Assembly (NCBI GenBank): GCA_021108215.1
Contig: JAIORK010000050.1
Span: forward strand, 10,498-74,497
Source: a bacterium
GTDB taxonomy: Bacteria; Oederibacteriota; JAAXVQ01; JAUVAV01
Direction: 5' to 3'
DNA length: 64,000 nt
Part shown: positions 19,421-41,840 of the stretch, in pieces
How the letters are laid out: each line of letters begins with the position of its first letter
Numbering within the stretch: position 1 is the first letter of the stretch
Translations under genes and position numbers: made by a program
The notes under the pieces: model-generated
Database searches by the model: none
Told to the model about the DNA's origin: nothing
What the model saw: only the letters and a program-made list of their open reading frames with translations

Positions 19421-19825
19421 TCCCGCCCCCCATTATGCGTAATAATAAAATCTCACGATCAGATGCTTTAATATACCAAGAGGCGCATGAAAAATCACGC
19501 GCCTCCGCACAAAGAGCAACCATATCATTCCTGCCAAAAAGCGTCAATTTCTTTATTCCGCACTATTTCAAAACAATGATTTCGATATCCAATTCCTAAT
19601 TCCAATTTCACCTAATCACTTCAACAAACTTTATTTACAAAATGATAGTCGAAGCATCCTGTCAAGGATGCCGCTAAAACCTCAAATCATTCTTCACGCA
19701 AAGTTCGCAAAAAAAAATGCAGGGCGGTGTTAGGTTATCAGGTGCATGATTCTCAAATATATGCTGAATACCTTACTACCTAACACCGTCCCACATTTCT
19801 CGTCACGCCCGGGTGTTTTTGTAAT

Positions 19826-19954
19826 GTAGGGAACGGTTTCAAACCGTTCCCTACAGACCCGTCCCCATATCAAATAAGTGTGTTATCTGAATATTCTAAC
19901 TCAGGTAGCGAATCACTGCTTAATTCCTTATTTCAAATACGTCCCCTATCACGC
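19826..19954. repeat. palindromic repeat element B (second copy of the element-A family)
   Basis: gtagggaacggtttcaaaccgttccctac (19826-19854) has the same 12-bp arms as 2701-2728. ttatttcaaatacgtcccc at 19929-19947 matches 2660-2680. Short tatcacgccccctatcac tandem repeats follow. Confidence 0.6.
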
Positions 19955-20252
19955 CCCCTATCACACGCCTTCGCCCACGTCTCCCGCCCCGCTTAGTGAT
20001 CGCAACGTATTGGCATTTCCCAATCCGGGCAACAAGCATATTTATTTTCAACTTCAAACTTCGGCCGGCTCTGAAATTGAAATTAATTTCTATAATTTTA
20101 CCGGTGAGCGGATAGCGATATTAAGACAGCGTTTGGATCAAACCCGGATACTTCCCTGGAATTGTGAGAATATCGCACCGGGAGTTTATATGGCTGTGAT
20201 TAAGCTAGATGGCCGGATATGGGAGAAGCTTAAAATCAGCATCGTCAGATAA
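19878..20252 (+). pseudogene. orphan T9SS C-terminal sorting domain (remnant of a T9SS cargo gene lacking its cargo part)
   Basis: The ORF encodes only ...LAFPNPGNKHIYFQLQTSAGSEIEINFYNFTGERIAILRQRLDQTRILPWNCENIAPGVYMAVIKLDGRIWEKLKISIVR, a T9SS C-terminal domain homologous to the C-termini of 5228..8341 and 20465..22375. No signal peptide or functional domain lies upstream, and the upstream sequence is repeat element B. Confidence 0.6.
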
Positions 20253-20294
20253 AGGAACTTGGGAGATCGTACGCGTCTCTTTAATATTTTTTAG

Positions 20295-20372
20295 AAATAA
20301 AAAACCCCGCACCTTTCGGTGCAGGGTTTTTTATTTCTGGCGAGGCCGAGTAGACGAGTTTCGCACCTGGGG
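20295..20372. repeat. R1: bidirectional terminator hairpin plus tRNA-Asp-3'-end-like segment (tggcgaggccgagtagacgagtttc)
   Basis: aaaaaaccccgcacctttcggtgcagggttttttatttctggcgaggccgagtagacgagtttcgcac. The same architecture recurs at 23527-23600 and 26510-26560. Confidence 0.65.
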
Positions 20373-20464
20373 CCGGACCTGTCCGGCGAATGCCGCATGA
20401 AATTGGCGGCTTAGTGTTGTCCCTGCCAAATCTAATGTGTCAGGTAAATACTGTCTCTGTACAT

Positions 20465-22375
20465 TTAATGTACAATTGCAAGCTTAAGTACTTCGAATTT
20501 TTTCCCATTTTTATTTATTTTCGCGATATAAAAGCCCGGGGCCAACTCTTGACTATCCAAGATAATTACCTGTCCGTGCCCTGCTAATAACTCCTCAGTT
20601 ACAGTAATAGTTTTTTCTCCGGACATATTGTAAATCACAATCTCTATACTAGCAGCATTATCCAGATGCATCAAAAATTTAACTTCATCGCTAGCAGGAT
20701 TGGGATAAGCTAATACTTTTTTCCCGTTCAAATCCAACCCAGCCAAAGCATTGATAGGAGTTGTGGTTAAAGTTATAGTCATTGAGGCCTCAATTATAGT
20801 AACTGTAGGACTTGCGGTTGGTGTATTTGTAATGGTTGCTGTAGGTGTAGCTGTCAAAGTAGGCGTATATGTTTGAGTTGCAGTATTAGTATTAGTATTA
20901 GTAACTGTGGGTGCAACATTGGTAACTATCTGGGTATTTGAAAAAACTGATGTATTATTCGTTCCGCCTTTTGCAGTTGCGATTACAGTTTCACCATCTA
21001 AACAACTAGTACCTGGATTAAAATTCCAGAAACCTGAACCATCAGCAGTCGTAGAACCCACAAAACGCAGAGTATCACTACCATCTGTAGTTACAAATAC
21101 TTCAATATAATCATTAGCACCTGAGATGCCGCTGACCACAATGTTTTCTGCAGCATAATTGATCACAGGTGCAGTACCGGGTGCACTACTGCTATCTACA
21201 ATCATATTCGTGCAAGCTACCATGGTATTTCCATTACTCTCATTATTCGTAGAAATTACTACTGACCCATCTCTAAACCAAATAGCACTGCCAGTAGCAC
21301 TCGAAAACAAATTGCCATTACCATTAGTTAATCCAATATAATTATTCGCTCCACCATATATATCAATTGCATAAGCCAGCGCTGTGGTACTACCATCCGG
21401 CAAAATACCAAAACGATTGTTAACCAAGGTATTGTATTGAGCTAAATTGGAAGCATTGATAGCGCTTTGGCGCATAAGTATCCCCTTACCAAAACTATTA
21501 CCTTCGATCCAGATTCCATCACTACCACCTACAAAAATTGACCAATTTCCATTGGAAATCACTGCATCTCCAGTAGCATTGATTGAAAAATAATTGCCTA
21601 CAAACCGATTGTTATCTCCAACATTTGTAGTAGCAATGTAAATACCATTACTAGAATTACCTGCTATTATATTTCCAGCACCAGCTACTAACCCACCAAC
21701 CAATAAATCACTAACCGTTGCATTAATATGTATGCCCGTTGCTTGTACTCCTAAACCAGCGCTCCCATCAATGTTGGTTCCAATATAATTCCCGCAAATA
21801 GAATTCGAATCAGACTGTCCCCATAAATAAATCCCAGCATTAATATTACAAGAAATTACATTTCGTTGCGCTGCAATCAATCCGCCAATAATATTATTTG
21901 GACTGGAACGAAAATATATACCGTTTGAATTACTTTGATCTGTTGCGCTATTATAATCCGTGCCGATCAAACAACCCGTAATAGTTATTCCAGATATTCC
22001 AGTAAAATTTGTCTGAATTGCATTCTCACTATTAATCAGCACTAAATCATTAATAATTGAATTACTACTACCAGTATCAAAATATAATAATGTTACTCCT
22101 GAAGAAGTTCCGGTTGACTGAATTGTGGTTCCGTAACCTTCTATAATCACTTGATCAGATATAGATAAATCAGCAGTCAATGTGATTGGACCAGATACAT
22201 TAAAATCAATTGTATCAGTTACACTTGTGCTGAGATCCGAAAAACCTATAGCTTCGCGCAAGGAACCTGTTCCATCATTTGCTGTACTAGTAACTGTGTA
22301 AGTGAGAGCAGAAACTTCAGAGACAATTAAAATCAATACAAAAATTGATACTACAAATCGAAATACTTTTTTCAT
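20465..22375 (-). CDS. T9SS-secreted beta-helix surface protein (paralog of 5228..8341)
   Basis: Signal peptide, G-N-x-I-G-x-N beta-helix repeats, a T/N/P-rich linker (TVTNTNTNTATQTYTPTLTATPTATITNTPTASPTVT), and a C-terminal T9SS domain (KVLAYPNPASDEVKF...GFYIAKINKNGKKFEVLKLAIVH). Confidence 0.85.
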   Translation of the reverse strand: MKKVFRFVVSIFVLILIVSEVSALTYTVTSTANDGTGSLREAIGFSDLSTSVTDTIDFNVSGPITLTADLSISDQVIIEGYGTTIQSTGTSSGVTLLYFDTGSSNSIINDLVLINSENAIQTNFTGISGITITGCLIGTDYNSATDQSNSNGIYFRSSPNNIIGGLIAAQRNVISCNINAGIYLWGQSDSNSICGNYIGTNIDGSAGLGVQATGIHINATVSDLLVGGLVAGAGNIIAGNSSNGIYIATTNVGDNNRFVGNYFSINATGDAVISNGNWSIFVGGSDGIWIEGNSFGKGILMRQSAINASNLAQYNTLVNNRFGILPDGSTTALAYAIDIYGGANNYIGLTNGNGNLFSSATGSAIWFRDGSVVISTNNESNGNTMVACTNMIVDSSSAPGTAPVINYAAENIVVSGISGANDYIEVFVTTDGSDTLRFVGSTTADGSGFWNFNPGTSCLDGETVIATAKGGTNNTSVFSNTQIVTNVAPTVTNTNTNTATQTYTPTLTATPTATITNTPTASPTVTIIEASMTITLTTTPINALAGLDLNGKKVLAYPNPASDEVKFLMHLDNAASIEIVIYNMSGEKTITVTEELLAGHGQVIILDSQELAPGFYIAKINKNGKKFEVLKLAIVH

Positions 22376-22529
22376 TTATTCACTCCTTAATTTTGCTAAT
22401 TAATATCCATAGGTTAACACCATTTAAATTAAATTACGATTAAAAACATTTCGACCCCTGTTATAATCGGACAAAACTAAATAGTAGAAATCTGCTATGC
22501 TAAGAGCCTCAAAATCAGGAGACAAAACA

Positions 22530-22621
22530 GTGAGCAAAGGCAAAAAATGGACATCGGAAGAAAAAATGGCAGCAGTTATGGAAGGGCTAAAAGGTCGGCC
22601 AGCTCGTGCTAGGGTCGAGTA
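22530..22621 (+). pseudogene. possible IS3-family-like transposase OrfA N-terminal remnant (frameshifted, 30 codons)
   Basis: Frame 1 reads VSKGKKWTSEEK and continues in the -1 frame as MAAVMEGLKGRPARARVE*. Joined across the 5-A run at 22561-22565, KKWTSEEK-AAVMEGLKG resembles the HTH_Tnp_1 N-terminus of IS3-type OrfA. The call is weak and rests on recollection of the family. Confidence 0.25.
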
Positions 22622-23231
22622 GCCCAGAGGCATCTCACTTCCAGGCTCTCACAGAACCGTACTTAAATCTCTCAATTCATACGGCTCTTACTGTTCGGCC
22701 ATTATGATTAACATAATGACTTGCTTCATGACTAAAGTTCCTCCGGTTTTTCAACAGTTGACAATAGTCACCAAGCTGAACAGTTCGGTCCCGCAGCGAA
22801 ACTTCCATTACAGAAGCTTCTTCACTACTACGAACCGATCGCCCCTATATCATGCCTTGGTACTCACAACCTAACACCGTGCTACGATGCTTGGATGGCT
22901 CCCTTTACATCATGATATAGGTTCCCACGTTCTCCGTAAAAGCCCGAACAGAGCTCATGCCACCTCTATGCCGGATGCCGCACAGCCAGTAAACACGTTT
23001 CCGCTATGCTTGTCCCAAGATTCCAGCAACACCTTGGTTTTGACATCATCATTTTGACTTTCGACACTTTATCAGTGGTTCACTTTCGTTCATCTTCTCT
23101 GTTCATACCTCACCTTGACGCTCACCACCATGTCTTTTGAACACAGCAGCTCAAGGCGGTTTGGCACCTGCTCGTGCAAGCCGATGCCGAAGGACCGACC
23201 CCTTCATCTCTTACGAAACTTCGTGGCACAC
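22618..23231 (-). mobile_element. ORF-less group II intron candidate (or 3' intron fragment) with canonical domain V
   Basis: The minus-strand sequence GAGCCGTAT-GAATT-GAGA-GATTT-AA-GTACGGTTC (plus 22653-22686) reproduces the domain V architecture. That comprises a 9-bp lower stem with the AGC triad and G-U pairs, a 2-nt bulge, a 5-bp upper stem and a GNRA loop (compare Ll.LtrB GAGCCGTATACTCCGAGAGGGGTACGTACGGTTCC). A D6-like helix AGCCTGGA...TCTGGGCT followed by AC lies 7 nt downstream. The candidate 5' GTGTG is at 23231. The 1.37-kb region 22376-23742 has no credible ORF. The boundaries are approximate. Confidence 0.6.
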
Positions 23232-23452
23232 TGCCGGAGTTCAAATGTTCAAATAACACTCCACTATTCCTACCATTTCAAAACGCTAATTTCCAGATAA
23301 TAAAATCCGTTCAATCTTCGGATGCTCAAATACCAGCACCAAGCAACGCTTCCCGATTGGAGGTCGCAATTTGCGATCTCCAATTTTCTGTTTCTTGCTT
23401 GGGTAACCAGAACATAAAATCTCCAGCCAGCTCAATTTAAATTGACTCGATA

Positions 23453-23600
23453 ATTCACGAAAATCGAACAATAGAGCAGTTGAGCAGCAGACCGCCCTAA
23501 ACCACGTAGGGTTTAGGGCTTCAGAAATAAAAACCCCAGTCCTTATTGGACTGGGGTTTTTATTTCTGGCGGGGCCGAGTAGACGAGTTTCACAACTGGT
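23453..23600. repeat. R2: roughly 110-nt repeat (acgaacaatagagcagttgagcag...accgccctaaaccacgtagggtttagggcttcag), terminator hairpin and tRNA-Asp-3'-like segment
   Basis: Near-identical to 26451-26560 over about 110 nt. The hairpin is aaaaaccccagtccttattggactggggttttt and the tail is tggcggggccgagtagacgagtttc. Confidence 0.7.
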
Positions 23601-23742
23601 GCCAAGAAAAACCGGCTGCTCAAATTAGCTTTTACATATAGTGATCGTCCATTATTATAGACTGAATTAATTATTTTTATTTTATTTCATTGAAATAAAA
23701 CCTACACAAACCTAAAAAACCGATTTTCTCTCTAAGACTGCA

Positions 23743-25059
23743 TTATCGCCTCTCATGACGTTCGTTATCTTGCGGAGTAAGCGTAATGGTTTTATCATAA
23801 TCCGATAATAACTTCGAAATACCAATAGCTTGGATTTCTTCATTGGCAGCACCATCAAGATTTAATTGAAGCTGACAGTTATCACATTTGCGATCACAAA
23901 ATACCGGTTCATAAGAATCCGGCTCTTTATAGGTTGTAATAACACCTTCAAAATTACGAAGAATAACTTTGTTCGTAGACCAACTGATCAGATATTGAGG
24001 CATAACAGGTATTTTCCCTCCACCTCCAGGAGCATCGATAACGTAAGTAGGCACTGCAAAACCGCTGGTATGACCAATAAGATTTTCCATTATTTCCATA
24101 CCCTTGCCAACCGGTGTACGGAAATGATTTAATCCTTCGGCCAAATCACACTGATATAGATAATAAGGACGCACACGATTCTGTACGAGTTTATGCACTA
24201 ACCGCTTCATTATCCTTGGACAATCATTAACACCAGCTAAAAGTACTGATTGATTACCTAGTGGTATTCCGCTATCAGCCAATTTGGCCAATACTTCTTT
24301 AGAAGAATTGGTGATTTCTCTTGGATGATTAAAGTGCGTGTTTATCCAAAGCGGATGATGTTTTTTCAATATATTTACTAATTCATCGGTAATACGATAA
24401 GGCAAAACGACCGGCATACGTGTCCCTATCCGAATAACTTCTACATGGTCAATAGAACGCAATTCTGTCAAAATCCAATCGAGGTAATCATCACTTAACA
24501 TCAACGGATCACCACCGGAAAGCAATACATCACGCACTTGTGGTGTTCGGCGAATATAATCCAATCCTGCTTGAATGGTTTTACGATCAGGGATAAAATC
24601 AACATCCCCGACCTTTCTCTTTCTGGTGCAATGTCGGCAATACATCGAACACATATTGCTGATCAGAAAAAGAACACGATCAGGGTAACGATGCGTGATA
24701 CCCGGCGCAGGTGAATCTTTGTCTTCAGCCAAAGGATCATTCATGTCATACTGAACCTTTTCCAGTTCGTGAATAGAAGGAAAAGATTGCAAAAAAACAG
24801 GATCATTCTCAAGATCTGCTTTATCAATCAGCGATAAATAATAAGGTGTAATCGAAAGCGGAAATTTTTCCAGTGTTTCTTCCAAATCTTTTCTTTTTTC
24901 AGTGGTAAATCGAACATCCAGTAGCTTTTCAAACAAAGCAACCGAAGTAATGCGATGCTTTAATTGCCAACGCCAATCATTCCACTGATCAGTGGTATTC
25001 GTTTGATCAATCTTATTGGCAATCGTTTCCTGATGATTTGATAAATCTTTATTCGTCAT
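23743..25059 (-). CDS. kamA: lysine 2,3-aminomutase (radical SAM, KamA/AblA)
   Basis: 438 aa with [10 protein letters not shown] (CxxxCxxC) and the KamA-family motifs ([20 protein letters not shown]-terminal CDxxC region). Confidence 0.85.
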
Positions 25060-25069
25060 ATTTCATCCT

Positions 25070-25984
25070 TCATACTATAGTTTTATTCCAGATATTCATT
25101 GATTCCCAACCGGTTGGCATGCGGCAATTATTCACCAAGCGCCCGCCATAGCCATAACCCAATTTTGCAAAAGCAGCATTGATGCCAACAATAGGCGCAC
25201 GACAAAGTGTATAGTAATCAACAATTCCAAATACGTCCTTCAAAACCCGTTCAAGTTCTCCAAGCAAAACCAGCATCAAACCATGTCCACGATAGTCCGG
25301 ATCGGTTGCACAATCTGTTAATTCAGCTGTTTTTCGTCCATGATCGATTTCAGCTGAAGCACAAGCGATCATTTCATTTTTTTCGTTTTCAACAAACAAA
25401 AATAACGAATCCTTATTTTGAATATTTTGAGCAATCGTTGCCGGTTCCAAAGAAGATGGATAATCAGAAAATATTTTTTTGAGTAAGCCGCTCAATCCGG
25501 CGGCATCTTCTGTTTTGGCTATTTGCACATCAAAATCATTTTGTATCCGAGCCGGATCAATCACCGGTTTTGATTGAACAGATGTGACGATCTTATTTTG
25601 TTCACCTGCACGATCATCTTGCCCCCGATGGTCAGACAAAAAAAAAGACCAAATTACCGAGTCAAGATGACTCTTAAAAAAACCATTAATCTTCCCTTCT
25701 TTGACAAAACCTATTTCTTGCCAAGCTTGATCATCCCCCTGCGTGGTGTACACAATAATCTTTGAAAATACCAGATCAGCATTTGCAGAAGATACAGGCG
25801 GAGAACATTGAGCTTGTATATCAGCAATCGTCACACCATATAACTTCACACGCTCATTACGGGGATCAAAAACAGACTCAAAATCTTTTTGTCCAAACCG
25901 AATAGACATTGAAATCGTCTTTTTGCTATTGATTGCTTTTGGTGTACCAAATGCCTCGTGTAAATAATGTTGAAGTTCAAGCAT
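25070..25984 (-). CDS. ablB: GNAT acetyltransferase, beta-lysine N-acetyltransferase (AblB)-like
   Basis: 304 aa with a C-terminal GNAT fold (ACASAEIDHGRKTAELTDCATDPDYRGHGLMLVLLGELE). Its length and its adjacency to kamA match the ablA-ablB pairing used for N-epsilon-acetyl-beta-lysine synthesis. Confidence 0.6.
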   Translation of the reverse strand: MLELQHYLHEAFGTPKAINSKKTISMSIRFGQKDFESVFDPRNERVKLYGVTIADIQAQCSPPVSSANADLVFSKIIVYTTQGDDQAWQEIGFVKEGKINGFFKSHLDSVIWSFFLSDHRGQDDRAGEQNKIVTSVQSKPVIDPARIQNDFDVQIAKTEDAAGLSGLLKKIFSDYPSSLEPATIAQNIQNKDSLFLFVENEKNEMIACASAEIDHGRKTAELTDCATDPDYRGHGLMLVLLGELERVLKDVFGIVDYYTLCRAPIVGINAAFAKLGYGYGGRLVNNCRMPTGWESMNIWNKTIV

Positions 25985-26124
25985 AATTCTATTCCTTTTA
26001 CATCAATGCTTTTTTCACAGCATCTTGCGAAACTTTGTTCGTACTGAGTACATCTTCAACCGATTGATCAATCCGGTTGTGTTAAATTTTTGGGTGTGAA
26101 TTCATCTTAGAGCGCACACTGGTT

Positions 26125-26439
26125 ATGGAGCTACAAACTCATAACCCAAACGACGTGTACGCCATGAAAAGTGTATCACAAATAATCCAAAAACAAACTC
26201 ACCAACAGCTCAGAAACCGCACCCGTGAAAGTATCCAACCCGGAACGATCCAGGCTGTCTTTGCCCAAGAAATCAATTCCATTATCGGAGATGCTCTCAA
26301 TGCCCAATTGGTTGCTGAGCGGGATGCCGCCCTGGGCTGCGCTGCTTACGAACGCAAATCCGGGGCATCCCGCAACGGCTTCAAGTCAATCAAAGAAAAC
26401 CGGGGAGGTGTGGAGTTCCTCACGCCCACAATGCCTTAA
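26125..26439 (+). pseudogene. IS256-family transposase N-terminal fragment (truncated at repeat R3)
   Basis: ...LVAERDAALGCAAYERKSGASRNGFKSIKENRGGVEFLTPTMP* matches the IS256/mutator N-terminal signature (AERD..LG...YER...RNGY...G.I.L.VP). The ORF stops 12 nt before R3 begins, and no DDE domain follows. Confidence 0.6.
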
Positions 26440-26450
26440 AAAGCTCAAAA

Positions 26451-26556
26451 ACACGAACAATAGAGCAGTTGAGCAGTAGACCGCCCTAAACCACGTAGGG
26501 TTTAGGGCTTCAGAAATAAAAAACCCCACACCGAAAGGTGCGGGGGTTTTTATTTC
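26451..26556. repeat. R3: copy of the R2 repeat plus bidirectional terminator, immediately 3' of tRNA-Asp
   Basis: acgaacaatagagcagttgagcagtagaccgccctaaaccacgtagggtttagggcttcagaaataaaaaaccccacaccgaaaggtgcgggggtttttatttc. Confidence 0.7.
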
Positions 26557-26633
26557 TGGCGGGGTTGACGAGGCTCGAACTCGCGACCTCCTGCGTGACA
26601 GGCAGGCGCTCTAACCAACTGAGCTACAACCCC
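26557..26633 (-). tRNA. tRNA-Asp (anticodon GTC), CCA encoded
   Basis: The minus-strand sequence GGGGTTGTAGCTCAGTTGGTTAGAGCGCCTGCCTGTCACGCAGGAGGTCGCGAGTTCGAGCCTCGTCAACCCCGCCA folds as a cloverleaf: acceptor GGGGTTG/CAACCCC, anticodon stem CCTGC/GCAGG, loop CTGTCAC, T-loop TTCGAGC. Confidence 0.9.
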
Positions 26634-26766
26634 GCGAACACAGTGAGCAGCTCTGCTGTTCTGCTGATCCGCTGTTCAATGTTTAACTTCTCCAGATTCG
26701 AGTTTTCCCTACTTTCAAATTTTTACTCTCAATTGCTCTGCTTTTTCATCCCCAGGACGAAAAAAC

Positions 26767-26843
26767 TGGTGGGCGAAACAGGACTCGAACCTGTGACCCC
26801 CTGCTTGTAAGGCAGGTGCTCTAACCAACTGAGCTATTCGCCC
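26767..26843 (-). tRNA. tRNA-Val (anticodon TAC), CCA encoded
   Basis: The minus-strand sequence GGGCGAATAGCTCAGTTGGTTAGAGCACCTGCCTTACAAGCAGGGGGTCACAGGTTCGAGTCCTGTTTCGCCCACCA has the anticodon loop CTTACAA. Confidence 0.9.
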
Positions 26844-27031
26844 AAAATTTTGCTTCACAAAATTTAGAGCAATTGAGCAACCAAAGGTTCAATTGCGGTC
26901 TATTGTTCAACTGCTCAATTTTCATGTAATATTATCCTGCCCAACAACTAAGGAAAAACAATAATACTAAAATTTCTTAACAAGTCAAGATTTTTTTCTT
27001 AAAAGTCACTGCCCTGTTATCCAGAGACTTT

Positions 27032-30155: not shown

Positions 30156-30282
30156 TCAATTCGTCACGAAAAGACGTTTATACCTTCCTTTCGTGGGTTC
30201 AAGCTGATTTTGAAAGGATTTACTCTAGCATTGGGCCTGTGGACTGTCAAGAGCACGAGTAACGAAAATCACTTGAAAAGCA

Positions 30283-30708
30283 TTCACCGCCGAGGCGCTG
30301 AGGACGCAGAGAAAATCATTTAAAAACAAATATTTTACTGAATAATAACTATAACTATTTTGATTTTCTCTGTGTTCACCGCTGAGACGCTGAGAACACA
30401 GATGAAAATATTTATTATGAAAATCGCTTGTTAAAAAATATTAAATATAATTCAAACACTAACACCCTGTTACAAAGCCGGTCAAAATGCTTATTTTTAA
30501 AAGAAAAACCGGCACTGTCACCACATAACCAAGCAAGTTTTGACGATATGGCCCACGAAGGCTATACCTCTATTGATGATGTGTGTTTTTTCTTTAAAAA
30601 TAAGTATTCTGACCGGTCATAGCATCGTCTGTATTACTTAATTTGGACAAAAGTATAATTTAAACCTTCAAATATTGTGGTTTTCTCTGCGTCTTCAGCG
30701 TCTCGGCG
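30283..30708. repeat. three copies of a roughly 33-nt unit (caccgcCGAGgCGCTGAgGACgCAGAGAAAAt) in the oxidoreductase upstream region: two direct, one inverted
   Basis: 30283-30318 (+), 30376-30412 (+, within the imperfect palindrome gattttctctgtgttc...gaacacagatgaaaat), and 30673-30708 (-). Confidence 0.5.
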
Positions 30709-30716
30709 ATGAAATG

Positions 30717-32423
30717 CTAGGATTTTTCTATAAGTTCCCGGGCATGATTAAGTGCAGTATCTGTGATCTGGTCACCTGCCATAAGCCGGGCAAGTTCCTT
30801 GACTTGCGCGTCTCGATCCAGCGGACTCACCTGAGAAATGGTTCTACCTTGTTCCACATACTTACTGATTAAAAAATGACTCCGGGCAAAACGCGCTATC
30901 TGGGGAAGATGGGTAATCACCATAACCTGCCGGTGTTTCGACAATTCCTTTAGTTTCCGTCCAACCGCCTCTGCGGTTGCGCCGCCAACACCGGCATCCA
31001 CCTCATCGAATATCATGGTGGGTACACGCGCGGCAGATGCCGCAATTACCTTAATTGCCAGCATAATACGGGAGAGCTCCCCGCCTGAGGCTATTTTGGA
31101 TACCGGCTTGGCCTCCTCGCCGGGGTTGGGGGCAATCAAAAACTGAATATCATCTGCGCCATGCGGTCCGCATTTATAGTGTTTTCCATCCCAGCTGATC
31201 CATCCGCCGGTATCTTCACGCGGTTCAACTTGAATCTCAAACATCGCCTGATTAAATCCCAGTGATTTTAATTCAAGTTCCAGGGCCTTTGCCAATTCCT
31301 TACCCGCTGCACGCCTTTTTCCCGAGAGTTCTCTTGCTTTTTGCGACAAATCCGCGCTCAAGGCCGCTTCTTCTTGGGCAAGCCGCTCCAATTCTTCATC
31401 TTTGTGGGTCAAACTCTCTTTTTCCACCAGCTTTGATTCATAAAACCCGAGAATGGCCTCTTCCGACTCGCCGTATTTTTTCTTCAATTTATATAAAACA
31501 TCCAGACGTTCTTCCACTGTTTCCAGTTGCGCCGGATCCGCCTCAAATCCTTCAGAAAAATCCGCCAACCGGTCAACCACGTCCGTGATCAAGACCTCGG
31601 CAGACCGCAAATCATCTGCCAGGGAGCCCATCTGACTGTCAAAACGCGCCAGATCACTAATTGCATTCACCGCTTGCGTAAGGCTCTCACGCGCTGAGCC
31701 TTCTTCTTTGCGATGAAGACTATCCAGGGCGGTTATGACATTGGCGAGCATCCGCTCGGCATTGGCCAATTTATTTTTTTCTTCCTGCAACTGTTCATAC
31801 TCGCCGGGTTGAATCCGGGCTTTTTCAATTTCCTCAATCTGATAGACCAAAAGATCAAGCTGGCGTACGCGTTCCGCCTCATCCATGGCCAATTGCTCCC
31901 GCGCTGCCCGCGAAGCACGCAATTCCCCATAGACATCCGCCACCTGTTTACGCAGCGTCTCCAGGCCTGCCCAGGCATCAAGTAAATCACGTTGCTGATG
32001 ACGCTGGAGCAACGATTGATGCTGGTGTTGACCGTGCAGATCAACCAATTCCTCGCCAATGCGCTCCAAAATTGCCAGGGTTGTATAGCCGCCATTGATA
32101 AAACATTTGCTCCGGCCATTGCGTGCCAGCGTCCTTTTGATTACAAGTTGATTATCTTCACAGGGTTCAAGACCGGATTCCTCCAACAACGCATGTACCG
32201 GTGATTGCATCTCCAGGCGAAAAAGGCCTTCCACCGTAGCGGTATCGCAATCCGCCCGGATCAAATCCACAGAAGCGCGCTCGCCTAAAAGCAGCGACAA
32301 TGCTCCGAGTAAAATGGATTTCCCCGCACCGGTTTCACCGGTCAAAATACTCAAACCCTCATCCGGCGCCAGTGTCAATGCAGGAATAAGCGAAATATTT
32401 TTTACGGAAATTTCAAGTATCAT
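30717..32423 (-). CDS. recN: DNA repair protein RecN
   Basis: Walker A GETGAGKS at the N-terminus, a long coiled-coil, and C-terminal signature and Walker B motifs. 568 aa. Confidence 0.9.
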   Translation of the reverse strand: MILEISVKNISLIPALTLAPDEGLSILTGETGAGKSILLGALSLLLGERASVDLIRADCDTATVEGLFRLEMQSPVHALLEESGLEPCEDNQLVIKRTLARNGRSKCFINGGYTTLAILERIGEELVDLHGQHQHQSLLQRHQQRDLLDAWAGLETLRKQVADVYGELRASRAAREQLAMDEAERVRQLDLLVYQIEEIEKARIQPGEYEQLQEEKNKLANAERMLANVITALDSLHRKEEGSARESLTQAVNAISDLARFDSQMGSLADDLRSAEVLITDVVDRLADFSEGFEADPAQLETVEERLDVLYKLKKKYGESEEAILGFYESKLVEKESLTHKDEELERLAQEEAALSADLSQKARELSGKRRAAGKELAKALELELKSLGFNQAMFEIQVEPREDTGGWISWDGKHYKCGPHGADDIQFLIAPNPGEEAKPVSKIASGGELSRIMLAIKVIAASAARVPTMIFDEVDAGVGGATAEAVGRKLKELSKHRQVMVITHLPQIARFARSHFLISKYVEQGRTISQVSPLDRDAQVKELARLMAGDQITDTALNHARELIEKS

Positions 32424-35602: not shown

Positions 35603-36601
35603 CTACACCTCGCGTTCTGTTACGTAGTTTGCAATCGCCGTTAATGGCGCCGCCTTTTTCCCAAAAACTTTAAGCGCTGACAATCCCTTGGCAATAAGTG
35701 TCTCCGCATGTTTTTTAGATTCCTCCAGCCCGAACAGTGCCGGATAAGTCGCCTTGCCTCTGGCTTCATCTGTTCCCACACTTTTGCCAAGATCGCGCAT
35801 TTCTCCGATTACATTTAAAACATCATCCGATATCTGAAAAGCCAAGCCAATGGTCTCGCCATAGACTGAAAGTGCTTTCATTTTTTCAGATGACGCCTTG
35901 GCCAGACATCCCCCGATTTTAAGTGCCGCCTGAATCAGCTGCCCGGTCTTATGCGTATGAATATACTGCAGCATGGGCAGATTAATATCCTGGCCTTCTG
36001 CATCAATATCCGCCATCTGGCCGCCGACCATACCTGCCATGCCTGCTGCCTTGGCAAGAATACGCGACGCTGCTATGACTTGTTCCGCCTCATCCGCTTT
36101 TTTGGGAGAAAATTCCAATTTCCCCATCAGCTCAAACGCAAAGGTCAAAAGTGCATCCCCTGCTAAAATCGCGGCTGCTTCGCCGAAAATTTTGTGACAG
36201 GTCGGCTGCCCCCGACGCAGCGCATCATCATCCATCGCAGGTAAATCATCATGCATGAGTGAATAGGTATGGATGCATTCCAATGCACATGCCGCCGGCA
36301 TCACCGCTTGGGCCGTGCTCCCGCAAGCCTCCGCTGCGGCGATCACTAAAATCGGACGCAAACGCTTACCCCCAGAAAACATACTGTGCCGAACCGCAGC
36401 ATGCAATTTCGCCGGAAAATAATCCTTACGCGGCAAATAACGATTTAAGGCCTCGTCAACCAGCTTCCCCCGGGAAGCCAAATAGGTTTTTAGGTTAAAG
36501 TGGCTGTCATCTTTCACCAAGGACTTCTTTTTAACCGCCGCTTTCGTGACGGTTTTGCGAGATGCTCTGTTTGACTTAGAAGAGGCTTTCCTGATCTTCA
36601 T
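35603..36601 (-). CDS. ispA: polyprenyl (farnesyl/geranylgeranyl) diphosphate synthase
   Basis: The aspartate-rich motifs LMHDDLPAMDDD and the second DDxxD region. The start is uncertain. The 354-aa ORF-track start at 36667 would give a lysine-rich N-terminus that is the +1 frame of the xseB acidic tail. More plausible starts are the ATG near 36601 or the GTG at about 36532 (VKDDSHFNLKTYL). Confidence 0.8.
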   Translation of the reverse strand: MKIRKASSKSNRASRKTVTKAAVKKKSLVKDDSHFNLKTYLASRGKLVDEALNRYLPRKDYFPAKLHAAVRHSMFSGGKRLRPILVIAAAEACGSTAQAVMPAACALECIHTYSLMHDDLPAMDDDALRRGQPTCHKIFGEAAAILAGDALLTFAFELMGKLEFSPKKADEAEQVIAASRILAKAAGMAGMVGGQMADIDAEGQDINLPMLQYIHTHKTGQLIQAALKIGGCLAKASSEKMKALSVYGETIGLAFQISDDVLNVIGEMRDLGKSVGTDEARGKATYPALFGLEESKKHAETLIAKGLSALKVFGKKAAPLTAIANYVTEREV

Positions 36602-36971
36602 CTTCATCTTCGTCTTCGTCGCCTTCTTCATCTTCTTTGTCGCTTTCGTTTTCGTCATCGTCTTCATCCTCGTCTTCTACGATTTTTGAAGCGCTTGCGC
36701 CATTTAATTCATCTTCAAAAGGACGACTCCGCAGCTTAGTGCCTTTATCCTCGAGTAGTTCCACCTTGCGCTCGGCAGCCTTGAGCTGTGTTGAGCAGGT
36801 TCGCGCCAGACCGACCCCTTCTTCATACAGGGACAATGCTTTTTCCAGCGGCGCCTCGGCACCTTCCAATTGGTTCACGATCTCTTCCAGCCGTTCCAAC
36901 GCCTTTTCAAAAGATGGCGCCTTATTGGTTTCCACCTTGTTTTTCGTACTTTTTTGGATTTTCTTAGTCAT
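36576..36971 (-). CDS. xseB: exodeoxyribonuclease VII small subunit with an unusual roughly 45-aa poly-Asp/Glu C-terminal tail
   Basis: The core SFEKALERLEEIVNQLEGAEAPLEKALSLYEEGVGLARTCSTQLKAAERKVELL is XseB, followed by EDEDEDDDENESDKEDEEGDEDEDEDEDQESLF. Start assigned to MTKKIQ. Confidence 0.8.
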   Translation of the reverse strand: MTKKIQKSTKNKVETNKAPSFEKALERLEEIVNQLEGAEAPLEKALSLYEEGVGLARTCSTQLKAAERKVELLEDKGTKLRSRPFEDELNGASASKIVEDEDEDDDENESDKEDEEGDEDEDEDEDQESLF

Positions 36972-37211
36972 GTGACAGGCTTTTCCTTTATTTAGGTAAC
37001 TCAAACATCCCCAAACTCCCCACCAATATACTATATTTCATAGAATAATAAATACTTAAATCCGATTAAATTTACTGGAAAAGGTATTACAAAAGAGCTA
37101 AATGACCGCAAAAAAGGTCTATCAAAAAAAGAAGCACGTCGATAAAAACAGACAACCGGATATTCCCCCTTGCCAAAATCCGGCATCAGGTGAATACCTA
37201 TTCCGGACAAC

Positions 37212-37751
37212 TTACCATTGCATTTGCCAGCGCAATTCTTGTGAATCTATTTCCTTAAAAATAACGACTGCATTTTTGTGCCCGGTCAATTCAAATAGAA
37301 TCAAGAGATGGCCTTTCACAATTTCCCGGGAATACTCCGGATAATCCGGGAATTTCCTCACAACAAAATCCGCACTGTTTTTCGTTATATTCTCGACACT
37401 GGCCTCACCTTTATCATGATACGTTTTCCAAATACCGGCTGCGCGCTTAACAATAAATTGTATATTCGGAATACGCAAAAACACTTTATATATCCCCGTA
37501 TAACTTTTATACGACATTGCTTTTCCCAGCAGAATAAGCCGGTCCGGATTGGTTGGATATAAAATCTGCGCAGCGAAAAAATAAATCTGGGCGACTTCTT
37601 CTTCCGGCGCCCAACTGGTACTGACGACTTTATTGTATATTTTTTCTAAGTCACCGGATAAACTTGCCGTAAATTTCTTTTCCAGCTCCGGGTTGGCTTC
37701 GCTGAATATTTTTCTCAAATTTACGACATCCGAGCATTTACTTAAAGCCAT
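37212..37751 (-). CDS. hypothetical cytoplasmic protein (179 aa), part of the inserted module
   Basis: No signal peptide or TM helix and no recognised family. It begins the AT-rich insert between xseB and xseA. Confidence 0.5.
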   Translation of the reverse strand: MALSKCSDVVNLRKIFSEANPELEKKFTASLSGDLEKIYNKVVSTSWAPEEEVAQIYFFAAQILYPTNPDRLILLGKAMSYKSYTGIYKVFLRIPNIQFIVKRAAGIWKTYHDKGEASVENITKNSADFVVRKFPDYPEYSREIVKGHLLILFELTGHKNAVVIFKEIDSQELRWQMQW

Positions 37752-37944
37752 GGTTCACTCCTAACTACTTTTAGATATGTCTTAGCCTCGCTACCAAAAA
37801 GGCTGAACTTAACCCGGTTTGATAAATATTTTTAAATTATAGAACAGGTGTCCGCATCCTACTCCACCGATTTCTATACTAAATGCAAACTCCAATTAAA
37901 CTGTTTTTCTGCGATTTTTTTAAAATAACTGCGTACATTTAAAA

Positions 37945-39516
37945 CTATTTAAATTTAATAACTCCGCCAATAACCACTTCACTGGAACTTCCATCATTTC
38001 TTTTATTCAGCCTATGCGTCTTTAAATACATTATCTTCCCACTTTCATCCATTCGCGTTCCCCATAATGCATTCGATCCAGATCCCCACATTAAATCACC
38101 TACCGTCTCATCCCCATAATCAGGATCAGCAGCATATTTTACTTTTTGAGGTGACCCGCCATACAATATTCTTGTTTTACAGTCTCCAAAATCATACTCA
38201 CTGACATCCCTCTGAAGTATCGTTTTCCCATCAGCTTGAACTTCATCGCCATCTGTCAGAACACCATAAAAAACCTCTTGATATGTTTTGGGAATAAAAT
38301 CCCCTCCCCCGCTTAAACTATATTCAGCATCCGCACTTAAAAACGTTGCAGTTGTATATGATGTTTTTTTACTTTTTCTTTTAACTTTTTTGTCGAATTC
38401 TTTAATTAGCCTATCAAATTCTGCATTTTTTATTTTTATTGTAAAATTCAAAATAAATCCAACCTCAAGTGTGGCTGTTCTGCCATCTGAATAATATCTC
38501 CAATCTGTATTTTTGGTCCAACCATTTATGATGCCCTCACCTGCTTTTAATTCCTTGATATTGATTTGATCACTTCTAATTTCCTCCCTATTTTCTTCCT
38601 CCGCTTCATCTTTTTTGACGCGGACATTTTTAGTATCCCTATATTTCCTGTTTTTTTTATTGATTTTCGTTGTAGCTTTTATAGCAATCTTGTGTTTCCC
38701 ATCATCTTCTTGTTCAATATCCCAATAATGTTTTAATATTTCGTTTCTTTTGAGTTTTATTGCCTTCACCACTTTTTTATCGATTGCAAGCTGGACATCA
38801 ACCTCTTTCTCCCAAGCTTTCTTCTTGGTCTCCGCTTTTACCATATCAACATATTCCCAACTTTTCCGGAAACCATTATAAGCTTTCAATAATATTTCAG
38901 TGTCACTATGTCCGGCGAGATCATACTTCATGGTCCATCTTTTCCATTTTTTGGGTTTGTTTTTTGTGTCCTCTATCCATTTTTTCTTACTTTCTATCAC
39001 CGCGACTCCTGCCGTGATATTATATTCTGTATTTTGCATAATTTTCGTAAAATCCCACTTATCTTCTTCTAAGCCACTATACTTATTATTAATTTGCATA
39101 ATCCCATAATCAGTTGATTCGACTTCTTTTCTTCTTGTTTTTGGATCAACAATCACTTTTCCGGTCTTATCTATTTTATAGTTTATTCCTTTATACACAT
39201 TGCCGTTTTCATCAAATTGCTGCCAACCACCGCTTTCATGGTATGCAATCACTTTCAGCATTTCGCTTGGTAAGCAGGATTTGGTTTTCTCAAACAATTG
39301 ATCAATTTCGGAATAACTCATATTTTTGTTGCTTTTATTCCGAAACATTTCAGCAATGATGTTTATTGATTCAGAAATAACTTGTTCATCAACCGGTGTT
39401 GTAATTCTTATATCAAAACCACTAGCATTGTTTATAAACAACGAGCTAAAAGTCATTAAGATCAATGTAATTACTTTTATATTAGTCGACGAATATGTCA
39501 TACGGGTCTCCATCAA
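37945..39516 (-). CDS. secreted protein with N-terminal lytic transglycosylase (SLT/lysozyme-like) domain, K/E-rich central region and unknown C-terminal domain
   Basis: A signal peptide (ITLILMTFSSLFINNASG). The SLT motifs are AYHESGGW (catalytic Glu-Ser), STDYGIMQIN, NITAGVAVI and LLKAYNGF. These are followed by about 150 aa of lysine- and glutamate-rich low-complexity sequence and a 150-aa Gly/Asp-rich C-terminal domain. Coding GC is about 35%. Confidence 0.65.
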   Translation of the reverse strand: MMETRMTYSSTNIKVITLILMTFSSLFINNASGFDIRITTPVDEQVISESINIIAEMFRNKSNKNMSYSEIDQLFEKTKSCLPSEMLKVIAYHESGGWQQFDENGNVYKGINYKIDKTGKVIVDPKTRRKEVESTDYGIMQINNKYSGLEEDKWDFTKIMQNTEYNITAGVAVIESKKKWIEDTKNKPKKWKRWTMKYDLAGHSDTEILLKAYNGFRKSWEYVDMVKAETKKKAWEKEVDVQLAIDKKVVKAIKLKRNEILKHYWDIEQEDDGKHKIAIKATTKINKKNRKYRDTKNVRVKKDEAEEENREEIRSDQINIKELKAGEGIINGWTKNTDWRYYSDGRTATLEVGFILNFTIKIKNAEFDRLIKEFDKKVKRKSKKTSYTTATFLSADAEYSLSGGGDFIPKTYQEVFYGVLTDGDEVQADGKTILQRDVSEYDFGDCKTRILYGGSPQKVKYAADPDYGDETVGDLMWGSGSNALWGTRMDESGKIMYLKTHRLNKRNDGSSSEVVIGGVIKFK

Positions 39517-40486
39517 TACTTATTCTTTTTAAAATATTTCCAGTTTCAACATCTAACACAACAACCTCACCGGATGTTGAGGAACTAACAAATATTTTCT
39601 TCCCACCATTAGATAGTCCAGCATTGTATCCTTTAAAACCCATCGAATATGTTTTTACAACAGTATGGTTACCAATATTAATCTTCGCCAATTGACCATC
39701 ACCCGCAACATATAAATAACCATCTTTCAGAATTGCTATTTTTCGAATTTTTTTAATGGTTTCCAATTGAATATGATCCATGCTTCCGTTTTTCGCATTA
39801 AAAACCACCAATCTATATTGACTTCTGGTTGTTTTATTATCGTATGGGTCATATTTATAGATAACCAAATAAATCGTTTCCTCATCTATAACGACAATAT
39901 CGTGAATACGCTCTCCTGCGGTGATATAAAACGTTTTCTCAATCTGGTCGGTTTGAGTTGATATCTTTTTCAAACAATTGTATTCCGCTGCATAAACATA
40001 CTTACCATCTTTTGTAATATCTAAAAATCCGGTTTCCAAACTATTTTTCAACAGTATTTTTATTTGTTTGTTTTTTTTCAGATCAAGCACAAATATCCCG
40101 GATGGATTAACATCATCCCAGGAAATAACACCAACATAAAGCTTTTGAACATCCGGAGCTATTACTGCTTTTGACAACCCCGGGGTTATAACCCCATCAT
40201 ACTCTATATCCCCAAGTTCTTTTAAGGAATGGCGGTCATGAATATTCACAAAAAGAGGATTAATGAAATAAAGCCTATCCCCATTCGCAACAATAATATG
40301 TGCCAATGTATGATTGAGCTTTGATTCCAAAATTTCATAATAATCATCCACACCAAACATCTGTACTGACATAGAATATCTTGTTGTTACTAAAAGTCGT
40401 TCATTTGGCTTTGCTGCTGAAACGGACACACTTGAACTAACTATCGTTAATAAAAAAAAGACAATTGCTATTCGAGAATATTTCAT
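39482..40486 (-). CDS. secreted YVTN-type beta-propeller protein
   Basis: A signal peptide and repeated YVTN/LVIVD-like blades (KKIFVSSSTSGEVVVLDVETGNILKRISIDGDPYDIFV, GYLYVAGDGQLAKINIGNHTVVKTY). AT-rich like its neighbour. Confidence 0.65.
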   Translation of the reverse strand: MKYSRIAIVFFLLTIVSSSVSVSAAKPNERLLVTTRYSMSVQMFGVDDYYEILESKLNHTLAHIIVANGDRLYFINPLFVNIHDRHSLKELGDIEYDGVITPGLSKAVIAPDVQKLYVGVISWDDVNPSGIFVLDLKKNKQIKILLKNSLETGFLDITKDGKYVYAAEYNCLKKISTQTDQIEKTFYITAGERIHDIVVIDEETIYLVIYKYDPYDNKTTRSQYRLVVFNAKNGSMDHIQLETIKKIRKIAILKDGYLYVAGDGQLAKINIGNHTVVKTYSMGFKGYNAGLSNGGKKIFVSSSTSGEVVVLDVETGNILKRISIDGDPYDIFVD

Positions 40487-40550
40487 TAGTAACTCCTATT
40501 AATACTTTTCAATGGTGTCATCTTCAAGACACTTTATTCATTCTTAGTCA

Positions 40551-41840
40551 TTAGACTTCATTTCCAATGATTTCTTTCGTTTTATTCACATCACACTCAA
40601 CCTGTCCTTCAGACAGCTTGATGCGAATTTGATCCCCTTGCTTGAGGGATTTGGATGATTTGATGAGTTGGTTATCCGGCTGTTTATACACCAGTGAGTA
40701 CCCGCGCGACATGACTTTCAAAGGCGAGAGGGCTTCAAGCTGGGCGATCCGGCCTTTAAGTTCCTGGCGGGAAAATCTGAGACGGTTGGTCAGGGATTGA
40801 CGCAAATCAGCGGTTAAATCATCCAGCCGCTGGGCCATGGGCTCAAAAACCGCCAGGGGTTTTTGCAAAAAACGGGATGCGGTCGCACGGTCGAGACGTT
40901 GCCGCATACTGTTGAGCTGCTCATACATCCGGTTGGATAAATGACGCTGCAAGGATTTAACCTGTCCGCTCATCTCACGACGATCGCGTACGACCATTTC
41001 AGCTGCCGCAGTCGGGGTCTCAGCCCGCACATCCGCTGTGAAATCGGCAATGGTATAATCCACCTCATGCCCTACTGCAGAAATAACCGGAATTTCAGAT
41101 GCGGCAATGGCCCGGGCCACGATCTCCTCATTAAAAGCCCAGAGATCTTCCAAAGAACCGCCGCCGCGACCGCAGATAATCACATCCCAGCCGCCTATTT
41201 CATTGAGCCGGTTTACGGCATGCGCAATTTCTTTGGCCGACCCATCGCCTTGGACCCGGACCGGATAGATCGAAATATCCGCCAGGGGCGAACGCCGTCC
41301 GGTGACATTTAAAATATCGCGGATCGCAGCACCGGTCGGCGACGTGATCACCACAATACGGCGCGGGAATTCAGGTAATATTTTTTTTCGTCCCGGATCA
41401 AACAGACCTTCTGCGGCAAGTTTTTTCTTGAGTTGCTCATAGGCAAGCTGCAATGCACCCAACCCGGCCGGCTCCATGCTCTCGATGACCATCTGGAAAT
41501 CACCCCGCGCCGTATAAAGCGAAAGACGGCCCAAGGCAATTACCTTGAGACCGTCTTCGGTCTTAAAACGCATGGTGCGGTTGGCACCACGAAACATCGC
41601 AGCGCGCAACTGGCTGCCGCTGTCTTTGAGTGTGAGATAAAAGTGCCCGGAAGAGTGGTGCTTAAAATTAGAAATTTCACCTTCCACCCAAACACGGGAA
41701 AATGCCCCCTCTAATAACCCGCGGGCACTCTCGACCAGTTCGGAAACCGAATAGACTTTACGCTGCTGGTCGGTTGAATCTATGCTCACTTCTTCTTTTT
41801 CTTCATCTCGTATTTCGAGCCTCCAATGGCGCTTTTGCAT
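40551..41840 (-). CDS. xseA: exodeoxyribonuclease VII large subunit
   Basis: An OB-fold N-terminus (VWVEGEISNFKHHSSGHFYLTLKD), the catalytic core, and a C-terminal coiled-coil. 429 aa. Confidence 0.9.
   Translation of the reverse strand: MQKRHWRLEIRDEEKEEVSIDSTDQQRKVYSVSELVESARGLLEGAFSRVWVEGEISNFKHHSSGHFYLTLKDSGSQLRAAMFRGANRTMRFKTEDGLKVIALGRLSLYTARGDFQMVIESMEPAGLGALQLAYEQLKKKLAAEGLFDPGRKKILPEFPRRIVVITSPTGAAIRDILNVTGRRSPLADISIYPVRVQGDGSAKEIAHAVNRLNEIGGWDVIICGRGGGSLEDLWAFNEEIVARAIAASEIPVISAVGHEVDYTIADFTADVRAETPTAAAEMVVRDRREMSGQVKSLQRHLSNRMYEQLNSMRQRLDRATASRFLQKPLAVFEPMAQRLDDLTADLRQSLTNRLRFSRQELKGRIAQLEALSPLKVMSRGYSLVYKQPDNQLIKSSKSLKQGDQIRIKLSEGQVECDVNKTKEIIGNEV

Follow-up and report, generated by a model that had tools for sequence, protein, structure and literature searches.

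How does AT-rich DNA come to lie inside an essential and conserved operon, between the genes xseA and xseB for the two subunits of exodeoxyribonuclease VII, and what does it encode? This question is raised by a locus of an Oederibacteriota genome (assembly GCA_021108215.1, contig JAIORK010000050.1), of which we analysed a stretch of 64,000 nucleotides (nt), hereafter called the window. We find that the AT-rich DNA is an island that holds a two-gene cassette and was acquired horizontally, which we hold to be nearly certain. The first gene of the cassette encodes a beta-propeller of the YVTN type and the second a protein with a lytic transglycosylase (SLT) domain. As the best overall explanation, to which we assign a probability of roughly 0.45, the island would be an inserted mobile pair made up of an antagonistic cell-wall toxin and a propeller that protects against it.

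An insertion between xseA and xseB

An earlier note on this DNA, made from the letters alone, had described three minus-strand open reading frames (ORFs) at 37212-40486, poorer in GC than their surroundings, and had read them as a horizontal insertion that separates xseA from xseB. The three frames indeed stand at the same coordinates (334, 523 and 179 amino acids (aa); locus tags K8S19_12155-12165 in the public metagenome-assembled genome (MAG)), and the island itself turned out to be slightly wider once its edges were placed by a direct repeat (Table 1). Its low GC content was confirmed by a profile along the window: the value is 0.32-0.38 across 37.0-40.5 kb and about 0.50 on both sides. 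The exact island, with 0.351, is the minimum of the window over stretches of 3.57 kb (mean 0.46, standard deviation 0.036), and the second-lowest non-overlapping stretch of this length reaches 0.391. At third codon positions (GC3) the propeller and SLT genes have values of 0.28 and 0.31 and the 179-aa gene one of 0.43, compared to 0.49 +/- 0.07 for 47 host genes.

The way in which this DNA arrived can be read from its edges. An 11-nt sequence, ATGACTAAGAA, consisting of the xseB start codon and the next eight bases, is found in exact form at both ends of the island. On the coding strand the end of xseA reads ...GAAGTCTA-ATGACTAAGAA-TGAATAAAG... and the beginning of xseB reads ...CCTGTCAC-ATGACTAAGAA-AATCC.... 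The copy at xseB provides the functional start of this gene (36971, giving 131 aa, as also in the public gene calls), while the copy behind xseA is now a dead mini-ORF, M-T-K-N-E-stop. The 10-mer core of the repeat occurs only twice in the 64 kb, counted on both strands, and both copies are those at the island edges (expected number 0.09); two boundary zones of 100 nt each would share an identical 11-mer by chance with a probability of about 0.002. The ancestral junction therefore had the form xseA-TAATG-xseB, in which stop and start codons overlapped. The island entered with an 11-nt target duplication and left both flanking genes whole. The locus thus presents a clean landing of foreign genes, resolved to the base pair, inside an operon (xseA-xseB-ispA-dxs) that remained unbroken.

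Comparison with other genomes gave the same picture. As reference we took the 80 loci with the best xseA relatives, which are at most 50% identical and come from several phyla. In 58 of them xseB was detected, always no more than 520 nt from where xseA matched and in no case at 3.5 kb, and a relative of an island protein was found in none of the 80. The closest xseA relatives among GTDB representatives, again at most 50% identical, belong to Ratteibacteria, Omnitrophota and Elusimicrobia MAGs. An exact-match search of JGI metagenomes with the predicted 37-mer of the empty site returned no match. Two other assemblies contain the same 6 kb across both junctions with 100% identity, and the junction of xseA with the propeller gene is present in a third as well; the arrangement is therefore neither a chimera nor an assembly artefact.

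The gap between xseA and the propeller gene amounts to only 64 nt and includes a ribosome-binding site, and we detected nothing resembling a promoter there. An Rfam search and folding of the island's spacers gave nothing. Directly after the 179-aa gene, at 37150-37211, we note a hairpin followed by a U-rich run (CCGGAAUAGG...UAUCCGG UUGUCUGUUUUUAU), which could be a terminator. If it does terminate, xseB-ispA-dxs would consequently need a promoter in the AT-rich final 180 nt of the island, a segment in which a consensus scan listed neither terminator nor promoter. Beyond xseB lie ispA, a DUF212 gene, dxs, an FtsJ-like gene and recN. The xseB protein is itself unusually long, its last residues (about 45) forming a tail rich in Asp and Glu that is encoded by repeats with a 9-nt period (36576-36700). 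Read in another frame, the same DNA extends the ispA ORF (35603-36667) by a Lys-rich N-terminal part, the two ORFs overlapping by about 90 nt.

Table 1. Features of the island and its flanks, with positions in the window, followed by the neighbourhoods in which the gene pair was found and the GC3 values of pair and host.
Feature	Location	Strand	Remarks
AT-rich island as inserted, without its two flanking repeats	36972..40540	-	3,569 nt; GC, repeat, synteny
xseA, exodeoxyribonuclease VII large subunit, intact flank	40551..41840	-	TIGR00237, 487 bits
Direct repeat copy 1, ATGACTAAGAA	40541..40551	-	overlaps last base of the xseA stop (TAATG); remnant xseB start
Stem-loop GTGTC...GACAC	40514..40533	-	just inside the left end, between xseA stop and propeller ribosome-binding site
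Gene 1, seven-bladed YVTN-type beta-propeller, predicted exported, 334 aa	39482..40486	-	profile homology; export read from sequence
Overlap of genes 1 and 2, 20 nt	39482..39501	-	gene 2 ATG inside the conserved ...PYD... codons
Gene 2, 518 aa, signal-like N-terminus, apparently split Big_7 with nested SLT, orphan C-terminal domain	37945..39501	-	
Ig-like first strands, residues 30-53, ahead of the SLT insert	39343-39414	-	
SLT (GH23-like) core, residues ~63-227	38821..39315	-	motifs, Pfam, AlphaFold helical core
Ig-like (Big_7) sandwich, C-terminal part, residues 233-295	38617..38805	-	AlphaFold strands, pLDDT >90
C-terminal orphan region (residues 296-518): linker rich in Lys/Glu, followed by a part rich in Gly/Asp/Tyr	37948..38616	-	pLDDT <50
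Gene 3, 179 aa, without signal sequence	37212..37751	-	GC3 0.43; passenger of the window island only
Direct repeat copy 2, ATGACTAAGAA	36961..36971	-	functional xseB start
xseB, small subunit, intact flank, acidic tail, 131 aa	36576..36971	-	TIGR01280 + PF02609
Context 1: between xseA and xseB	window		GC3 0.28-0.31, host about 0.5
Context 2: directly before pyrC-pyrK-pyrD	L004, L099		L004: GC3 0.31-0.35, host 0.50-0.51
Context 3: directly before leuS (Elusimicrobiota)	L104		GC3 0.27-0.31, host 0.28-0.41
Context 4: within murG...glycosyltransferase...murJ cluster, beside IS3-like element	L103		GC3 0.34-0.36, host 0.54-0.61
Context 5: between PilP-like gene and pilQ secretin (candidate division FCPU426)	L100; related L005-L010		L100: GC3 0.34-0.44, host 0.80-0.86; L005: 0.35-0.41, host 0.74-0.88
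Context 6: short contigs, no visible neighbours	L101, L102		

A conserved pair of overlapping genes

The three island genes had been taken together as one module. Co-occurrence does not bear this out: the conserved unit is two genes, the propeller gene and the SLT gene, and the 179-aa gene is a passenger. We gathered the pairs by reading the contigs of relatives together with the matches of an exhaustive profile search. Wherever the upstream gene is visible, a homologous propeller gene coding for 326-396 aa precedes the SLT-like gene; such pairs are present in the window, on L004, L100, L101, L102, L103, L104 and the P0012 contig, and twice on L005. The start of the second gene lies in conserved codons that close the first (...PYD/E..., tATGAt), and the overlap is 20 nt long in seven of nine pairs and shorter in L103 (17 nt) and L100 (8 nt). 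This geometry is that of translational coupling, in which the propeller would be translated first. Additionally, the identities of the two partners co-vary across the loci (r = 0.79), with the propeller always the more diverged one (25-38% versus 32-46% for the SLT-like protein).

The family is very rare and patchy. Among 5.8 billion proteins, the 518-aa SLT protein and the propeller have one relative each apart from themselves, and the whole family comprises 12 representative clusters in 1.8 billion. A family scan of metagenome contigs added only six distant loci with a stand-alone SLT gene; L095 proved to be an ordinary chromosomal SLT gene without a propeller. In the literature searched we found no prior description of the pair, of its nested domain architecture or of a recombinase-free cassette that behaves in this way in core operons.

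The propeller gene product begins with MKYSRIAIVFFLLTIVSSSVSVSA, which resembles a Sec signal peptide and is devoid of a lipobox; hydrophobic, signal-like N-termini recur in the propellers of the other pairs. That the protein is a YVTN propeller with a signal peptide, as the earlier note had it, is supported by the family profile, which matches the Methanosarcina S-layer YVTN protein 1L0Q with an E-value of 1.5e-32 and, in addition, hydrazine synthase beta (5C2V_B, 2.1e-18) and YncE (3VGZ, 5.5e-9). PF21783 is matched by three of nine propeller family members, and the window propeller alone reaches 23 bits against TIGR02276 (cut-off 27.85). All the propellers are homologous to one another (E 1e-18 to 1e-78). 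With the YVTN/YncE propellers (1L0Q, 3VGZ; PF21783) they share profile-level homology and a periplasmic or surface location, which for the window protein is predicted. They differ in forming a distinct, very rare subfamily that was found only beside the SLT partner, and no function is transferable to them from YncE or the S-layer proteins.

For the second gene, the frame of 523 aa that had been noted does exist (37945-39516, from a TTG), yet the ATG at 39501, which gives 518 aa, is favoured by public gene calls and by the conserved overlap. On sequence grounds we accept that its product carries a divergent SLT/GH23 domain at the N-terminus, as had been recognised. The motifs E89-S90 (codon 39235-39237), DYGIMQIN (131-138) and AYNGF (207-211) are kept, and E89, G133, Y208 and N209 are invariant across an alignment of 33 sequences. 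Against the Pfam SLT profile PF01464, the window protein itself gives 18.0 bits (E 0.0022, residues 73-222) and stays below the gathering cut-off of 21.3. Its relatives come from a two-sequence profile of the first 290 residues, which collected 117 representative clusters among 1.8 billion: 12 share the whole N-terminal architecture of about 280 residues, about 40 are short proteins in which only the core is matched, and the others are long proteins associated with the wall. At E <= 0.01, PF01464 matches 8 of the 12 with the full architecture (best 2.7e-9), 38 of 41 with the core only and 43 of 52 among the distant relatives. When the SLT family profile was run against the PDB sequences, nothing significant was found, lysozyme matching only at E 0.5-0.9.

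With the family 1 lytic transglycosylases (PF01464, GH23; Slt70, MltE) the protein thus has in common the E-S, G-(L/I)-M-Q and A-Y-N-G motifs, the invariant catalytic Glu and the helical core. It differs from them in its strong divergence, in an insert of about 25 residues between the Glu and GIMQ, in the apparent nesting of the domain within a Big_7 domain, in the fusion to a hypervariable C-terminus and in the overlapping propeller gene that always lies upstream. That the enzyme acts on the cell wall we consider probable.

AlphaFold gave a predicted local distance difference test score (pLDDT) of 30 for the 518-aa protein as a single sequence. With the 33-sequence alignment, residues 30-295 were modelled at pLDDT >90 and the remainder was not modelled. 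The model has two strands (30-53), the helical core (63-227) and then five strands (233-295). Big_7, an immunoglobulin-like (Ig-like) domain, is matched in some members of the family; proteins with Big_7 repeats match profile positions 14-57 and 240-292 as separate segments, and Foldseek retrieved a phage bacterial Ig-like domain (probability 1.0, 68 columns). These three findings suggest a Big_7 Ig-like domain within which the SLT domain is nested. The proteins are members of known superfamilies, and an SLT domain set into an Ig domain is an arrangement of structural interest. The probable coiled coil of about 150 residues that the earlier note had placed behind the enzyme domain is not supported: residues 233-295 are modelled as Ig-like beta-strands, and only about 296-320 are rich in Lys and Glu. 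Two cysteines are present in most family members (in the first Ig strand, F-C-I-K-I, and in P-N-x-C-x-K-N), and the window and L005 proteins are without both; this pattern is consistent with an optional disulfide in a domain that would be exported.

Residues 296-518 have no Pfam or PDB match and no relative even within the family, whose C-termini are hypervariable and fall into small, mutually unrelated groups. A conserved terminal G-x-I-x-F-K strand, together with cargo of the type IX secretion system (T9SS) in the host, had suggested a T9SS sorting signal here; we rejected it, as Por_Secre_tail did not match. The 179-aa protein is equally isolated. Among the 5.8 billion proteins only the protein itself was found, and it had no match in Pfam, NCBIfam, PHROG, PADLOC, PDB or plasmids, so that for both parts the earlier statement of no recognised family stands. 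The gene is absent from every other cassette. A cognate relation of toxin domain and immunity protein would fit the fact that this protein and the C-terminal domain of the window copy are both unique to the window; against it speaks that the other cassettes have no third gene.

Further copies and their insertion sites

The pair occurs in six unrelated neighbourhoods (Table 1) and is co-oriented with both neighbours in all of them. The same cargo has inserted repeatedly, inside core operons, in unrelated uncultivated phyla. In five of the six contexts it is AT-rich relative to its host. Only in the low-GC Elusimicrobiota locus L104 does its GC3 match that of the host, which makes lineages of this kind plausible as a donor pool.

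The second site with a footprint, on L100 (2477-11765) of candidate division FCPU426, is an operon for a type IV pilus. Its genes encode a pilT-like ATPase and a 164-aa prepilin with an N_methyl motif, followed by pilM, pilN, pilO, a 137-aa PilP-like gene, the inserted pair, pilQ, aroC and aroK. A perfect 21-nt repeat, GCAAATCGTATTCACCTTGCG, which forms the 3' end of the PilP-like gene, is found at 6908-6928 and again at 9535-9555, 20 nt past the stop of the SLT-like gene and just before pilQ. The related locus L005 is 80% identical in DNA from aroE to the stop of the PilP-like gene, where the homology ends. The PilP-like and pilin-like proteins of the two loci are 86% identical and the cassettes only 39% in protein. 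The L005 cassette also begins a few bases downstream of the position in L100, which suggests independent insertions at the same junction. In L005 (5557-9071, an FCPU426-like genome; also L006-L010) two pairs stand in tandem. In the first the propeller is intact and the SLT-like gene is cut to 63 aa, which truly represent the N-terminus of a family member (E 1e-4 to 5e-10), and 79 nt further on a complete second pair follows. Many contigs, produced by several sequencing projects, show this arrangement.

No recombinase was matched within the cassettes, that is, among the three island proteins and the proteins of the L100 cassette. The cassette ends have no shared 8-mer, terminal inverted repeats or attC-like sites that we could find. 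Both duplication sites are gene junctions and are otherwise unrelated. About 0.5 kb upstream of the pair in L103 (5925-7288) we observed an IS3-like element of host-like GC, with a 108-aa helix-turn-helix-like orfA and a 328-aa rve_3 orfB; it is the only gene of the mobility type seen near any copy. A 10-nt repeat at the edges of the L103 pair was discarded as a footprint, being at chance level in AT-rich DNA.

With integrative elements and promoter-less integron cassettes, the cassette has in common that direct repeats of the target gene keep the flanks intact and that it is small, co-oriented and apparently promoter-less. It differs from them by the lack of an integrase, an attC-like site, terminal inverted repeats and shared ends, and from insertion sequences and transposons by the lack of a transposase and terminal inverted repeats in the island and by a duplication length that is not fixed (11 and 21 nt). 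Target duplications of variable length with no mobility gene would mean an insertion route that current annotation tools for mobile elements miss. One may go further and speculate, as a reading we regard as rather unlikely, that the cassette is a new kind of small mobile unit without recombinase or promoter. It would insert precisely at the junctions of tightly coupled core-operon genes (xseA|xseB, pilP|pilQ, ahead of pyrC, ahead of leuS), duplicate 11-21 nt so that neither neighbour is lost, and rely on the host operon for its transcription. It would carry a hitherto unrecognised Sec-exported toxin, with an SLT domain nested in an Ig domain and a swappable C-terminus, together with a YVTN immunity propeller produced first by translational coupling, and circulate among Elusimicrobiota, FCPU426 and related candidate phyla as an operon-parasitising competition or addiction module.

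Possible functions of the pair

Among the roles that the earlier note had offered, that of a toxin with accessory or immunity proteins fits best. In its specific form, drawn by analogy and put forward only tentatively, the pair would be an exported, peptidoglycan-cleaving, bacteriocin-like toxin with a periplasmic protector. The cassette, having no recognisable promoter, would be transcribed from the host operon, as suggested by the short gap with its ribosome-binding site and no promoter-like site and by the co-orientation in six contexts. Ribosomes that finish the propeller gene would re-initiate on the enzyme gene, so that synthesis of the propeller comes first and the two products keep a fixed ratio. 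Both proteins would be exported to the periplasm, where the enzyme would cleave the glycan strands of peptidoglycan. The variable C-terminus may set the targeting, and the propeller may serve as the producer's periplasmic inhibitor.

A toxin with its protector is favoured because of the strict pairing, the polymorphic C-termini, the replacement of cassettes between near-identical hosts, the rarity and patchiness of the family and the published precedent, and because of the first propeller of L005, which, intact beside a truncated SLT gene, resembles an orphan immunity gene. The precedent is given by Tsi1, X-Tfi XAC2610 and PliI-Ah, periplasmic inhibitors of peptidoglycan hydrolases that share a propeller-like topology; Tsi1 and PliI-Ah block their targets via a loop inserted into the active site (PMC3391265, PMC10933484). 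The pairs Tse1-Tsi1, XAC2609/XAC2610 (X-Tfe/X-Tfi) and lysozyme/PliI likewise combine, in bicistronic arrangement, an enzyme that cleaves the wall with a partner that is periplasmic, all-beta and propeller-like, and they show a patchy mobile distribution and polymorphism. As in toxin/immunity pairs, the genes adjoin, overlapping by 8-20 nt in nine of nine pairs, and the partner has a signal-like N-terminus. In contrast to those systems, the window pair has no type VI or type IV secretion system (T6SS, T4SS) nearby and the enzyme appears to have its own Sec-type signal. The partner is, moreover, a full seven-bladed YVTN propeller that lies upstream and has no detectable homology to Tsi1, X-Tfi or PliI, and inhibition by it is proposed by analogy. 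If it holds, toxin and full-size propeller inhibitor would form a new effector/immunity architecture. Lytic transglycosylases, themselves targets for antibiotic adjuvants, would thereby be inhibited in a new way.

Several observations weigh against this explanation. A delivery system, a toxin-marker domain or a known immunity family was not detected with Pfam, NCBIfam and PADLOC, and genes for T6SS, T4SS, contact-dependent inhibition or bacteriocin release are found in none of the six contexts. SLT enzymes are mostly housekeeping enzymes. The known inhibitors are small partial propellers rather than complete ones, the signal peptides are read from sequence only, and the explanation gives no role to the third gene of the island, which has no counterpart in other cassettes. 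The target duplications are of unequal length, neither a mobility gene nor a shared end was detected, and the pil operon context would suit an assembly role.

This last point leads to the main rival, which we consider unlikely: the pair may be a wall-remodelling accessory, in which the SLT enzyme makes local gaps for an envelope machine such as a type IV pilus, the propeller acts as scaffold or regulator, and the cassette spreads by benefiting the cell. Specialised transglycosylases in machine operons are well established (VirB1, BfpH, EtgA, SltF), and like these, or SltF/FlgJ, the FCPU426 enzyme sits inside a machine operon in one lineage, between pilM-N-O with the PilP-like gene and the pilQ secretin. 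Both proteins also appear to be exported, and the catalytic residues are conserved. However, the pil site is itself a secondary, AT-rich insertion with the 21-nt target duplication and one of six landing sites, and the five other contexts, including the window, in which no pil genes were found, are without machine genes. A type IV pilus accessory as the general explanation was rejected on these grounds, the L103 and L104 contexts being unrelated, and they also weaken the case for the secretion-associated machine that had been listed as a candidate role. A hypervariable C-terminus and the swapping of cassettes between close hosts would also be unexpected for a housekeeping helper. Should the pair prove to be one nevertheless, such helpers can be mobile.

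A further reading, which we regard as improbable, has the enzyme work at the surface of its own cell or on some non-peptidoglycan glycan. The Ig-like and C-terminal domains would then be binding modules, with the propeller as a co-factor, and the system may serve nutrition, adhesion or the attack of a host-dependent bacterium on prey or host cells. Ig-like and variable C-terminal domains are indeed typical of surface and secreted glycan-active proteins, the hosts belong to uncultivated candidate phyla, and the window encodes cargo of the T9SS type. Yet the C-terminus carries neither Por_Secre_tail nor another sorting domain, the SLT motifs match those of peptidoglycan lytic transglycosylases, and nothing ties the propeller to glycan use.

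The two remaining readings are effectively excluded. The remnant of a lysis or entry module of a phage, tailocin or plasmid, another of the roles proposed earlier, is very improbable. In its favour, SLT domains are known from virion and tail proteins of phages, the inserted DNA is foreign and rich in AT, and two weak matches of Foldseek (E about 0.01) concern baseplate and Ig-like proteins of phages. However, tblastn gave no match in 50,697 phage records (INPHARED) or 72,556 plasmid records, IMG/VR held no relative, PHROGs gave no match at E <0.04 and PADLOC, consulted for a defence-system origin, none, and no phage genes stand beside the pair in any of the six contexts. That the genes are native and their low GC intrinsic, through amino-acid composition or local mutation bias, would agree with the host-like GC3 in L104 but hardly with target duplications at two independent sites, a GC3, largely free of amino-acid constraint, that is up to 0.5 off the neighbours, the absence of the pair from all 80 xseA loci and contexts that differ between genomes.

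Apart from the island, the window shows a second low-GC block at 19500-26900, which adjoins tRNA-Asp (26557-26633) and tRNA-Val (26767-26843) and may be another acquired island. It contains genes for a 636-aa Por_Secre_tail protein (20465-22375, GC3 0.24), a radical-SAM/LAM_C protein (23743-25059, GC3 0.31) and an acetyltransferase (25070-25984, GC3 0.30). The Por_Secre_tail domain, a C-terminal sorting domain of the T9SS, is present in two window proteins, this one and the NosD-like product of 5228-8341, which suggests that the host has a type IX secretion system. Finally, a short intergenic stretch of low GC (about 0.36) lies at 30200-30800, between recN and a ferredoxin / 2-oxoacid oxidoreductase operon.

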